DNA of 64,000 bases, from contig MFQT01000017.1 in NCBI GenBank assembly GCA_001783145.1, forward strand, positions 30,119 to 94,118, read 5' to 3'. Positions within the stretch are counted from its first letter, which is position 1, and each line of letters begins with the position of its first letter. Shown here in pieces: positions 4,378-6,366 of this stretch. Source of the stretch: Candidatus Magasanikbacteria bacterium RIFOXYB2_FULL_38_10 (GTDB lineage: Bacteria > Patescibacteriota > Patescibacteriia > Magasanikbacterales > UBA10003). Under the pieces are notes generated by a model that saw nothing but the letters and a program-made list of their open reading frames with translations, did not search any database and was not told the DNA's origin. The position numbers and the translations under genes are program-made.

Positions 4378-4456
4378 GTCACTAGTGTTTAAAAAAACTG
4401 ACAAAAAATTTTAATTGATTTTTTACCAAAAAGTTTCACCCACTAGCATACACCTC

Positions 4457-4485
4457 TTGACAAAATCTGTCAAATGTGCTATGAT
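4457..4485 (+). promoter_or_regulatory. consensus sigma70 promoter with extended -10 (TTGACA - 17 nt - TGcTATGAT) driving the high-GC ORF
   Basis: TTGACA at 4457-4462, a 17-nt spacer, TGn extended -10 at 4477-4479 and TATGAT at 4480-4485. The -35 overlaps a TTGACAaaatcTGTCAA palindrome. Confidence 0.65.
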
Positions 4486-4676
4486 ATGTAGTTAATTTGA
4501 TCTTTGATAATAGGGTGAAGGCTTTGTCCAACCAGATAAGTTTGGCTAAATTAAGGCAAAAATAAAGAAAATAAGATTAAATTTGTCCTAAATAAGCTTG
4601 ATTTATCCGGTTGGGCGAAGGTTTTCGCCCTCTCGAGGAAGGCTCCCCTTAAGGAGCTGTTTGGTAGGAGGTTCCT

Positions 4677-6155
4677 ATGGAACTCGTTCGTCAGTTCTTC
4701 GCGGCCCTGGTGTCCATGACGGACACGGCCATCGCGGCCGTGTTCCAGAGCCTGGAGCAGGAGAACGTGCTGACCAGCGCGCGTCTGCGCGCCGCGGTCA
4801 AGAAGAGCGAGGGTAACGAGTTCCGGCGCCTCAAGGTGGCTCTGGGCTATGCCGTGGACCACCAGCTCACCCTCTCCATCGCGAACATCCCGTTCATGAC
4901 GGACGAGGAGCTGGTGCTGGCGTTCCTGGAGGCCACGCCCGACCAGCGCGCCGAGTTCGTGGTGGCGCTGGACGAGATCACCGACGAGAGCGGTGTGCGC
5001 GGTCAGCAGGTGCTCTCCTCCGTGCAGGAGCGCCTCAACATCGAGAAGGCCGTGGCGCAACGCCAGGCCGAGGAGGAGCGTCTGGAGCGCGAGCTGGCCA
5101 AGAAGGCCGCCAGGCGCCTGGAGCTCCTGGAGCACACGGATCGCCTGATCCTGCACATCCTGCGGACCGGCGACGCCTGCGATATGACCGACGAATTGGC
5201 GGTCCAGTACATAGAGGATCAGCCCCTGGGCTACTTCAAGGTGCTCTCGGACATCGCCGGGCTCATCACCCCCGCCACCGCGGCGGAGGGCGAGGCGGCC
5301 CTGACCGGCCTGGACGCGCTGCGCGGCGGCACCATCGTGGACATGCTCACGGGCGCCACCCTGGCGGTGAAGGACGCGCGGAGCATCCGGGGTTGCTTCA
5401 TCACCGACGAGGAGGGCGCCAAGCGCCTCGTCAAGAAGCTCCCGAAGAAGGAGGGGGGAAGGGAGATCTACAGGCACCTGACGGGCGAGAGCCCCGAGGG
5501 TGTCCTGGAACGCCTGGACAGGCACGACGCGGAGTACGCGGCGCGCCAGAAGCGCGACGAGGCCTTCGTGGCCGAGGTGAAGAAGGCGATCGGCGAGGCC
5601 GACGCCACCTTCGTGGCCCTGGCCAAGGCGGTGGCCGAGCTGGTGGAGATCAACTCCGTCGGGACCAGCGGGCCCGAGGAGTGGAAGATGCGGATCATCC
5701 GCGACATCTCCGGCGAGTTCGGCGAGTTCCTGCGGCGGTCCTACATCGGCCAGTTGCGCCAGGCCTACCCCGACGCCTCGACGATCCCGGCGCTCAACGC
5801 CCGGATCGAGGAGGTCAAGGCGGCCTGGAACCAGGCGCGCGCGACGGGCGCCCCCTCCTACGAGCAGGATGCCATCCTCAAGGAGGTCCACGTCCTGGAG
5901 CGGCACCGGCAGTACCTGTCCGAGGCTCCCCAGCTCAAGCCGCAGCAGGGCAAGCCGACCGTCGGCACCCACGCCCACACCAAGGGCAAGGAGGGTGCCC
6001 CGGTCCTGACCGACCACTCCCGCGACGAGGACAGGGAGCGCAAGGAGCGCGAGCGGCGCGACGCCGACCGGAAGCGCACCCTGGACACCAAGGGCAAGGG
6101 CGGCGGCCAGCCCCAGCTCACGGGCAAGGGCAAGCACCAGAAGGGCAAGAAGTAG
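4677..6155 (+). CDS. hypothetical protein of foreign (high-GC) origin; alpha-helical, acidic/Arg-rich body with Lys/Gly-rich basic C-terminal tail
   Basis: 492-aa ORF preceded by GGAGG 5 nt upstream of the ATG. The composition is completely unlike the flanking genes. It is very GC-rich and nearly every codon ends in G or C, which identifies the plus frame as the coding frame. No motif that I recognise (no P-loop, no HExxH). The C-terminus is KGKGGGQPQLTGKGKHQKGKK. Confidence 0.7.
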   Translation: MELVRQFFAALVSMTDTAIAAVFQSLEQENVLTSARLRAAVKKSEGNEFRRLKVALGYAVDHQLTLSIANIPFMTDEELVLAFLEATPDQRAEFVVALDEITDESGVRGQQVLSSVQERLNIEKAVAQRQAEEERLERELAKKAARRLELLEHTDRLILHILRTGDACDMTDELAVQYIEDQPLGYFKVLSDIAGLITPATAAEGEAALTGLDALRGGTIVDMLTGATLAVKDARSIRGCFITDEEGAKRLVKKLPKKEGGREIYRHLTGESPEGVLERLDRHDAEYAARQKRDEAFVAEVKKAIGEADATFVALAKAVAELVEINSVGTSGPEEWKMRIIRDISGEFGEFLRRSYIGQLRQAYPDASTIPALNARIEEVKAAWNQARATGAPSYEQDAILKEVHVLERHRQYLSEAPQLKPQQGKPTVGTHAHTKGKEGAPVLTDHSRDEDRERKERERRDADRKRTLDTKGKGGGQPQLTGKGKHQKGKK

Positions 6156-6285
6156 CCCAGCTACTTCGGCTCCTCAAGTGCCCCCAGTGTCCCTGGCAAC
6201 ATTAACAACGCGGCGGCCAACTAAATAACCGCCCACAACGTCACATGATCTTTCAACAGGTTACAGAGGGTCGCAACGATCCTTA

Positions 6286-6340
6286 CCGGCAATCAAAGTT
6301 CAGTGCTAACACACTGTTCCCACGATTGCCGGTTTTTTTT
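6286..6340 (+). terminator. intrinsic terminator closing the high-GC cassette
   Basis: Stem ccggcaatc (6286-6294) / gattgccgg (6324-6332) with an inner cagtg/cactg stem, followed by a run of 8 T. Confidence 0.7.
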
Positions 6341-6366
6341 ATTTCTGCTAAAATGAAGTAAGGATT

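Follow-up and report, generated by a model that had tools for sequence, protein, structure and literature searches.

What keeps a single gene extremely GC-rich in an AT-rich bacterial genome? The locus that raises this question lies in the dcw (division and cell-wall) region of a Candidatus Magasanikbacteria genome (G000; 854 kb in 20 contigs, roughly 39% GC), within a stretch of 64,000 nucleotides (C17:30119-94118) that we call the window and whose positions are used below unless a contig is named. It contains a 492-aa orphan open reading frame (ORF), hereafter X, which an initial annotation of the DNA had read as a foreign, possibly mobile cassette. Comparison with other genomes (G labels) and with individual loci or contigs (L labels) gave good support to the conclusion that X is a native, lineage-restricted and long-resident gene of one Magasanikbacteria family and not a recent foreign insert. 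The best explanation overall, to which we give somewhat better than even standing, is that of a native, strongly expressed gene kept GC-rich by a fixation bias that is specific to it and disfavours A and T.

The compositional change at the locus is abrupt. From a level of 0.37-0.42, GC content climbs near 4600 to 0.64-0.71, and beyond about 6250 it is 0.36-0.42 again. Over 4607-6330 it amounts to 62-71%, in a genome of 38% GC, which bears out the flip from AT-rich to GC-rich sequence first described for about 4607-6332. The feature under study is the following:

4677-6155, plus strand: ORF of X, 492 aa, 69% GC, GC content at third codon positions (GC3) 0.95

GC content by codon position is 0.69/0.42/0.95, so that nearly all codons end in G or C, as the initial annotation had stated. 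X is embedded in the chromosomal dcw cluster, where its neighbours are mraY, ftsW, murG, a translin gene, a family 2 glycosyltransferase (GT2) gene, a mur ligase gene and divIC; GC3 is 0.31-0.43 in the first six of these. The genome-wide mode of GC3 is 0.30-0.40, and X is one of the two most extreme among about 793 ORFs called by a simple greedy script. A 528-aa ORF on the opposite strand (4551-6137, minus) was rejected as the real gene or as a second gene, being closed in G003; such a frame is open automatically because its first codon position pairs with the third position of the sense frame. The sense frame fits both the three-base periodicity given above and the in-frame insertions and deletions among orthologues, and these two features, together with conservation at the protein level, also led us to reject a structured non-coding RNA in place of a gene. 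The sole match in a search of Rfam was a tRNA (68.6 bits).

Relatives of X are few and closely confined. A search of 5.8 billion protein clusters gave 3 hits, with only two relatives, at 39-41% identity, and a profile search of 1.84 billion representative proteins yielded 13 in all. Scans of GTDB genomes, JGI metagenomes and IMG/VR revealed no relative outside the Magasanikbacteria family group, and across five very large collections no copy lay in GC-rich surroundings. By whole-genome search X was present in 3 of 61 related genomes, all of family f1. It occurs in G001 (same genus) and G006 (same family), with a shortened copy recognised by inspection in G003, and these three copies occupy the same slot and are all GC-rich. 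The order murG, tRNA-Lys, X, translin, GT2, mur ligase is shared by the window, L001, G001 (= L037), L038/L039, L070, G006 and G003. In L001, a 30-kb contig from another sample, it extends from mraY and ftsW at one end to divIC at the other, and the island has 67-73% GC inside DNA of about 40% GC. An inserted M28 peptidase gene separates X from translin in L022, and further copies were found in L023, L024, L192 and L193. The slot is thus common to at least eight independent assemblies of one family, X stands at the same locus in two genera plus further lineages, and all 12 homologues with DNA have GC3 of 0.54-0.99 vs 0.21-0.49 GC in their flanks. No X turned up in G002 or G005, two fragmented genomes with a completeness of 93-94%. 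In G004, of a third genus, the slot between tRNA-Lys and translin (L012, G004:C3 6509-7340) is taken by a 200-aa gene (6626-7228, minus) that is unrelated to X but has a promoter of the same type, so the slot itself seems to be a site of gene turnover.

Two of the signs of recent transfer that we looked for were absent. The syntenic site was occupied, not empty, in the window, L001, G001, L038, L070, G006, G003 and L022, and all relatives with known context lie in AT-rich, Magasanikbacteria-like DNA. Recent import from the donor of actinobacterial or myxobacterial style proposed initially is therefore not supported, no homologue outside the family having been found in the five collections, and the description of X as accessory to the locus finds no support either, given its occupancy in two genera and further lineages. 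Linkage of X to the genes of the locus, in contrast, was upheld in relatives, where the same slot is occupied and independent assemblies from different samples have the same junctions; on this ground an assembly chimera or contaminant was rejected. Many copies of X stand alone on contigs of 1.5-2.5 kb that end near the island borders (L002, L023, L024, L039, L192, L193), as do three records without DNA. Assemblies appear to break at the compositional junctions, and such genes are therefore likely to be under-represented in binned genomes.

For the synonymous sites, fourfold-degenerate positions were compared only under identical amino acids. The window and L001 shared 63% of fourfold third bases, and 36 of the 44 differences were G<->C exchanges; against L023, at 22% amino acid identity, 48% were shared and 28 of 30 differences were G<->C. 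An agreement of 48% represents full saturation for two states, and the G<->C share of fourfold differences was 82-93%. Of 22 synonymous changes that could be polarised on the branches to L001 and L002, 18 were between G and C (S<->S) and 2 led from G or C to A or T (S->W), counts obtained by parsimony, which is biased where the outgroups are nearly all G or C; for the G001/L038 pair, with outgroups almost all G or C, the polarisation was judged unreliable.

Rates of nonsynonymous and synonymous substitution (dN and dS) were estimated by the Nei-Gojobori method with Jukes-Cantor correction on sequences of extreme composition. In the window/L001 pair the proportion of synonymous differences (pS) was 0.36 in X vs 0.70 (dS about 2) in the flanking genes, which is what a two-state constraint predicts. 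Between G001 and L038, dS was 0.90 in X vs 0.81-1.34 in the flanks, a match from which it follows that X and its flanks have diverged together; dN was 0.23 vs 0.025-0.09, and GC3 of X is 0.79-0.83 in both. Because synonymous sites have reached saturation without leaving G and C, the GC-richness is actively maintained and is not simply un-ameliorated, and the decay toward host composition expected under amelioration was not seen. That a fixation bias holds the GC-richness of X is therefore well supported.

The bias reaches beyond third positions. The residues Gly, Ala, Arg and Pro (GARP) make up 0.31 of X vs 0.22 in the genome, and Phe, Tyr, Met, Ile, Asn and Lys (FYMINK) 0.185 vs 0.316, with an Arg/Lys ratio of 1.27 vs 0.46; AAA is used for none of 33 Lys codons, TTT for none of 13 Phe and ATT for none of 23 Ile. 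Ordinary codon adaptation does not account for this, since the genes for L7/L12 and L10 have GC3 of 0.33-0.37, and a general translational selection for G/C-ending codons was rejected because ribosomal-protein genes show no such bias. The genome encodes 46 tRNAs, including Lys-CUU, Glu-CUC, Gln-CUG and Leu-CAG, with species bearing C or G at position 34 (C34 or G34) in all boxes, which refutes the earlier claim that the codons of X fit the tRNA pool poorly. A dip in GC3 at codons 2-11 was present in 10 of the 12 alleles; such a start-proximal dip is the usual signature of a translated gene.

The X protein is also far more variable than its neighbours, with 20-58% identity between genomes vs 63-88% for the flanking proteins. 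The clearest case is G006 vs G003, in which flanking proteins are 88% identical and X is 27% identical, and dN is 0.78 in X vs 0.07 in the flanks. At the DNA level murG is 86% and the tRNA, promoter and leader together 75% identical between these genomes; blastn similarity ends in the 5' untranslated region, is absent across the X ORF and resumes at the stop codon at 82%, the 3' untranslated region (UTR) being 82% conserved though the ORFs share no DNA similarity. This pair thus shows both the sharp drop at the borders and the flank-discordant divergence of a hypervariable cassette. Because G001 and L038, a pair about as distant, retain 68% identity in X, we take the ORF to have been replaced between G006 and G003 with breakpoints in its own UTRs. 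The ratio dN/dS (omega) of X is 0.26 or higher vs 0.03-0.14 in the flanks, and a comparison of 0.26 with 0.03-0.07 indicates fast vertical evolution as well. X behaves as a replaceable cassette in that its ORF, whether by swapping or by divergence, changes independently of the sequence on either side, and to this extent the initial idea of a possibly mobile cassette stands; the recent import and the tRNA-integrated island that went with it are not supported. Two known generators of diversity were rejected. X is not the target of a diversity-generating retroelement, as the genome has no duplicate of 4601-6345 or of any segment of it; the single RVT_1 hit of the genome is on contig C11, and the divergence of X spans the whole ORF. 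Nor is it subject to silent-cassette conversion of the vls or pilE type, with one match per genome by both protein and DNA.

As the initial annotation proposed, X forms a self-contained transcription unit of a composition alien to its surroundings, with its own promoter, leader, ORF and terminator:

4457-4485, plus strand: promoter of X, TTGACA, 17 nt, TATGAT, extended -10 (TGTGC)
4445-4473, minus strand: promoter-like site for tRNA-Lys, TTGACA, 17 nt, TATGCT, 10 of 12 positions in the scan
4492-4676, plus strand: 5' leader of X, about 185 nt, from the predicted transcription start
about 4528-4614, plus strand: long leader hairpin
4613-4630, plus strand: leader hairpin GGGCGAA/TTCGCCC
4641-4658, plus strand: leader hairpin GGCUCC/GGAGCU
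4666-4671, plus strand: Shine-Dalgarno sequence AGGAGG, 5 nt before the ATG of X
6156-6284, plus strand: 3' UTR of X, 54% GC, C 0.35, G 0.19
6285-6341, plus strand: intrinsic terminator of X, 10-bp outer stem CCGGCAAUC.../...GAUUGCCGG, inner hairpin, U8

The near-perfect extended -10 sigma70 promoter, the GGAGG Shine-Dalgarno sequence 5 nt from the ATG and the strong two-tier hairpin with T8 reported at the outset were all confirmed. The promoter matched 11 of 12 consensus positions in the scan, plus TG before the -10, and its core CTTGACAAAA...AAATGTGCTAT is invariant in five aligned loci and also present in L022, L023, L038, L070 and L192. Within this core lies a palindrome, TTGACA-N5-TGTCAA, whose reverse half serves as the -35 of the minus-strand site; the palindrome and an upstream AGCATA / TATAAT-like box are kept in orthologous loci, and the site at 4445-4473 probably acts as the promoter of tRNA-Lys. 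The conserved leader consists of a long hairpin ending in TTGGGCG and two GC hairpins ahead of the Shine-Dalgarno sequence. RNAalifold on eight loci gave 21 pairs, 10 of them with compensatory changes; the leader of the window alone folded no better than shuffles (z -0.3). The promoter and the first 115 nt of the leader are AT-rich. The 3' UTRs are C-rich and G-poor in seven of seven orthologous loci (130-195 nt; C 0.28-0.37, G 0.16-0.24), with a GC content of 45-57%, a composition typical of Rho-utilisation sites or of a protein-binding platform. The terminator stem at 6285-6333 has a predicted free energy (dG) of -23.5 kcal/mol (z -5.1; 0 of 200 shuffles equally stable), and the terminator ACCGGCAATC...GATTGCCGG with its T-run is conserved or covarying among orthologues.

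X is not alone in its composition. About 30 of the roughly 793 ORFs of G000 have GC3 of 0.6-0.97, mostly orphans without Pfam hits and many with signal peptides; they are patchily distributed, and no clear phage gene set that would point to a prophage origin of these other islands was found. Examples of genes and of larger regions in G000 are:

C10:18350-18703, GC-rich gene
C10:26243-26857, GC-rich gene
C10:36987-38237, GC-rich gene (SufS-like)
C3:4694-5275, GC-rich gene
C3:12220-12876, GC-rich gene
C3:13174-13599, GC-rich gene
C16:13467-13850, GC-rich gene
C11:1-3100, GC-rich region
C15:25300-32800, GC-rich region
C16:99000-107500, GC-rich region
C1:1-5250, GC-rich region

With a near-consensus promoter defined as TTGACAAA-N8-AAWGTGCTATAMT with up to 2 mismatches and a downstream ORF, GC-rich genes lie behind 13 of 24 such promoters vs 17 of the 769 remaining ORFs (Fisher p = 3e-14), and the association also holds in relatives. 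Every family-f1 genome searched has the exact 21-base promoter pattern, which is absent from 6 other families of the order. More than 117 phage contigs also carry it, with an ordinary GC content downstream, which weakens the view of the promoter as a mobile, family-specific element and makes the pattern a generic near-perfect extended -10 consensus. Two genes of the set speak against simple recent import. A 218-aa GC-rich gene has a homologue in G004 that is 42% identical, equally GC-rich and behind the same promoter type. The SufS-like cysteine desulfurase at C10:36987-38237 (GC3 0.91, behind a near-consensus promoter) is 35% identical to an AT-rich resident paralogue (C10:51565-52722), with no close orthologue in same-genus genomes and no match above 55% identity among 5.8 billion proteins.

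A second conserved 5' leader RNA (the GATTTCTCCCTATTT leader) follows the promoter of at least nine GC-rich genes, at C16:13075-13200 in G000 (L020:3076-3195), L042, L049, L053, L057, L060, L066 and L068 in G002, and L061 in G001. It has an invariant 15-bp stem GAUUUCUCCCUAUUU/AAAUAGGGAGAAAUC, a covarying apical extension, CYGAGGA and then a second hairpin, with 27 pairs, 9 of them compensatory, and compensatory changes in the second hairpin; it had no match in Rfam and is a candidate new cis-regulatory motif. Units of promoter, leader and GC-rich gene adjoin tRNA genes in L049, L053, L060 and L061 (G002, G001), in the order tRNA, terminator hairpin, promoter. A GC-rich (GC3 0.71) IS110-family-like transposase gene (C2:6638-7912) and a single RVT_1 reverse-transcriptase fragment near a contig end (C11:39992-40276) are both unlinked to X.

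It is possible, if doubtful, that X and about 30 mostly orphan, often secreted genes per genome form a class kept GC-rich by a gene-specific force. We are just as tentative about the reading that joins to this class the near-consensus promoters and structured leaders as an 'orthogonal', AU-poor expression programme with X as its fixed-locus, hypervariable member. If this were true, the transcripts of the programme could, for example, be out of reach of an AU-directed RNase or of the general turnover of mRNA.

In the product of X a helical domain at the N terminus is followed by a coiled coil (107-152), a core that unites alpha/beta and helical-bundle parts (160-420) and a Lys/Gly-rich basic tail. 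AlphaFold (AF2) models built from orthologue alignments had a mean predicted local distance difference test (pLDDT) score of 73 at full length and, for the core, 85 with a predicted template modelling (pTM) score of 0.66; the structures combine helical domains and a long coiled coil with a small alpha/beta unit and a bundle of helices. The protein had been called all-alpha, which holds for most of the model and fails for one small beta region, and the basic tail was correctly recognised, the last 52 residues having a net charge of +7. No transmembrane segment or signal peptide was found (maximum Kyte-Doolittle value over 19 residues, KD19, 1.42). No family match reached the cut-off in Pfam, NCBIfam, PHROGs, PADLOC or PDB sequences (a ZapA hit at E 0.22 was not significant), and Foldseek searches with both models against PDB and BFVD gave no fold match, with a best E-value above 0.03, in agreement with the earlier remark that X has no recognisable motif. 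With a confidently modelled core of no matching fold, the product represents a new protein family. Its sequence features are those of a probably abundant cytoplasmic protein, and the Lys/Gly/Arg-rich tail suggests a predicted role in nucleic-acid binding. The fast, allele-swapping evolution suggests a role in genetic conflict with phage, host or competitor and not a housekeeping one.

Taken together, the mechanism that we favour would have X as a monocistronic unit built for strong expression, its near-consensus extended -10 promoter set back-to-back with a putative tRNA-Lys promoter, and with a conserved structured leader, strong Shine-Dalgarno sequence, C-rich 3' UTR and strong terminator as further parts. 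A gene-specific fixation bias against A and T would hold its GC content, and the force behind this bias may be selection acting on the nucleic acid itself, its most plausible target being a long-lived mRNA, poor in AU and resistant to nucleases, giving very high expression of an abundant, probably nucleic-acid-binding protein with conflict-like evolution. Several points weigh against this account. High expression is deduced from sequence signals only, and no homology or fold match backs the proposed function. Because ribosomal-protein genes are not GC-rich, an advantage in mRNA robustness would have to be specific to a gene class, and about half of the genome's near-consensus promoters drive ordinary AT-rich genes. 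A scan of X against synonymous shuffles for motif avoidance (an RNase or restriction signature) found universal TpA depletion only. The alleles with DNA number only 12, several of them on contigs of 1.7-2.5 kb, and the parsimony bias mentioned above touches the polarised changes. Finally, several lineages have a lower GC3, of 0.54-0.83, and the force is thus either variable or on its way to being lost.

The chief rival account of this force, which we consider unlikely, is non-adaptive GC-biased gene conversion (gBGC) at a recombination hot spot. Frequent exchange between strains, with heteroduplex repair favouring G and C, would drive GC3 toward 1, pull amino-acid usage toward GARP and hasten protein divergence, and hot spots of gBGC in vertebrates have comparable effects. 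The effect reported for bacteria is a few per cent and not a rise from 0.35 to 0.99, which counts against it. Allele replacement with X and flank divergence discordant, the GC shift in all codon positions and the 3' UTR, and an omega of 0.26 or higher are all as gBGC would have them; but the alleles are too divergent for heteroduplex inside the ORF, so that conversion would act mainly in the conserved arms, where the promoter and the first 115 leader nt are nevertheless AT-rich. The GC boundaries are sharp, and dS of X is not above that of the flanks in the co-diverging pair G001/L038. We counted for gBGC the raised GC3 reported for recombining bacterial genes (bioRxiv 10.1101/011023).

Ranked below gBGC, and to our minds more doubtful again, is recurrent import. 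Alleles of X, like the other GC-rich orphan genes, would then reside and diverge in a GC-rich gene pool that has escaped sampling, such as a plasmid, phage or host bacterium, and would land time and again in the one slot beside the tRNA, where a promoter is already in place. A GC-rich replicon would be expected to keep synonymous divergence within G and C, but across the five collections no homologue of X was found in a GC-rich context, and all alleles with known flanks are surrounded by AT-rich DNA and share the conserved promoter, leader and terminator. The replacement is ORF-precise, as import would make it, yet dS of X equals that of the flanks in G001 vs L038. The genome does have about 30 patchy GC-rich genes, and such cassettes often abut tRNA genes in G002 and G001; against this, no sequence anywhere is more than 55% identical to the SufS-like gene among them, and the surroundings of X contain no integrase. 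The unrelated gene in the G004 slot, behind the same promoter type, is a further point in favour of import.

Less likely still, and improbable in our judgement, is a partitioning of tRNAs by translational selection, in which X would use under-employed C34 and G34 tRNAs for fast translation without competing with bulk mRNAs. The full set of 46 tRNAs, the completely inverted codon use of X and its strong promoter and Shine-Dalgarno sequence would suit this, but ribosomal-protein genes lack the bias, and codon selection leaves the GC shift in amino acids and 3' UTR unexplained. An artefact, with the assembly chimeric or contaminated or the true gene being the antisense ORF of 528 aa, would account for the abrupt change of composition, the long antisense ORF and the several short contigs but is hardly credible given the same junctions in independent assemblies, the closed antisense ORF in G003 and the periodicity and indels that fit the sense frame.

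The flanks of X carry four further features:

4302-4377, minus strand: tRNA-Lys(UUU), found by ARAGORN, Rfam tRNA 68.6 bits, divergent from X
4225-4255, minus strand: partial duplicate of the tRNA-Lys 3' end, a 31-nt direct repeat 87% identical to 4292-4322
6366-6391 and 6415-6440: arms of a perfect inverted repeat, 26 nt each and 23 nt apart, lying after the X terminator and before translin
6451-7029, plus strand: translin-family gene, Pfam PF01997, E 1.2e-12, the conserved downstream neighbour

The tRNA-Lys gene adjoins X in all orthologous loci. A 21-nt core of the duplicated tRNA 3' end matches the L001 tRNA 3' end at 100%, and the two copies (4225-4255 and 4292-4322) are 67 nt apart on the murG side, with X on the 5' side of the tRNA; the pair encloses a few dozen bases only and not the GC island. 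The tRNA gene and att-like repeat noted upstream at first are thus both present, but the repeat does not flank the island, and it resembles the scar of an old integration or excision unrelated to it. A tRNA-integrated island was rejected on the position of X at the tRNA 5' side, the repeats that do not bracket it and the want of a nearby integrase: the island holds a single ORF without a Pfam match, and PF00589 hits in the genome are confined to contigs C16 and C5. The downstream inverted repeat is indeed perfect, at 26 nt and not the 25 first given (dG -31.4, z -7.7), and is particular to this genome, being absent from orthologous loci and with no full second copy in the genome. The neighbour identified as translin-like belongs to PF01997, and its orthologues are 67-71% identical with starts MPINQK/MNVNKK. 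Its start is most likely the ATG at 6451 (MPLNQKYF, as in orthologues) and not the mechanically called TTG at 6388, which falls inside the inverted repeat.

Compositional islands are routinely read as recent horizontal transfer, and for X this reading fails. Because X has stayed at a GC3 of 0.8-0.99 within genomes of 36-44% GC through saturating synonymous divergence, a factor other than recent arrival must set base composition gene by gene in this bacterium. If selection is the cause, it would point to a so far unrecognised level at which ultra-small symbiotic bacteria control expression; if biased conversion is the cause, this would be by far the strongest bacterial example. We know of no bacterial precedent for GC enrichment of such magnitude and found none in the open-access literature searched, which likewise nowhere described classes of GC-rich genes for Patescibacteria or Magasanikbacteria. 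There are practical consequences as well, in that GC-rich islands break assemblies, composition-based binning is likely to drop genes like X, and detectors of horizontal gene transfer will mislabel such islands.

Among known systems, X differs from an integron gene cassette in having its own conserved promoter and no integrase nearby, although no dedicated search with an attC model was made. With phage morons it shares a strong promoter and terminator of its own and a deviant composition; unlike them it lies outside any prophage, in the dcw cluster, with long inheritance at one locus, and it had no match among PHROGs or the viral folds of BFVD. Hypervariable capsule, O-antigen, flagellin and pilin cassettes have the same conserved arms, abrupt borders, deep allele classes and discordance with the flanks, whereas X is a single gene for a cytoplasmic protein without signal peptide, its arms are its own UTRs and its composition is extreme. 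Vertebrate gBGC hot spots and the GC-rich vls locus of Borrelia resemble it in lasting local GC enrichment and fast protein evolution, but X has no silent cassettes or second copies. Another parallel is the horizontally acquired compositional island undergoing Lawrence-Ochman amelioration, with which X shares a sharp discontinuity, alien codon usage and adjacency to a tRNA, and from which it departs in having no donor-like homologue, a locus conserved throughout its family and synonymous sites that are saturated yet still G or C. The usual island of this kind is AT-rich, and X is the reverse, a GC-rich gene in an AT-rich host.

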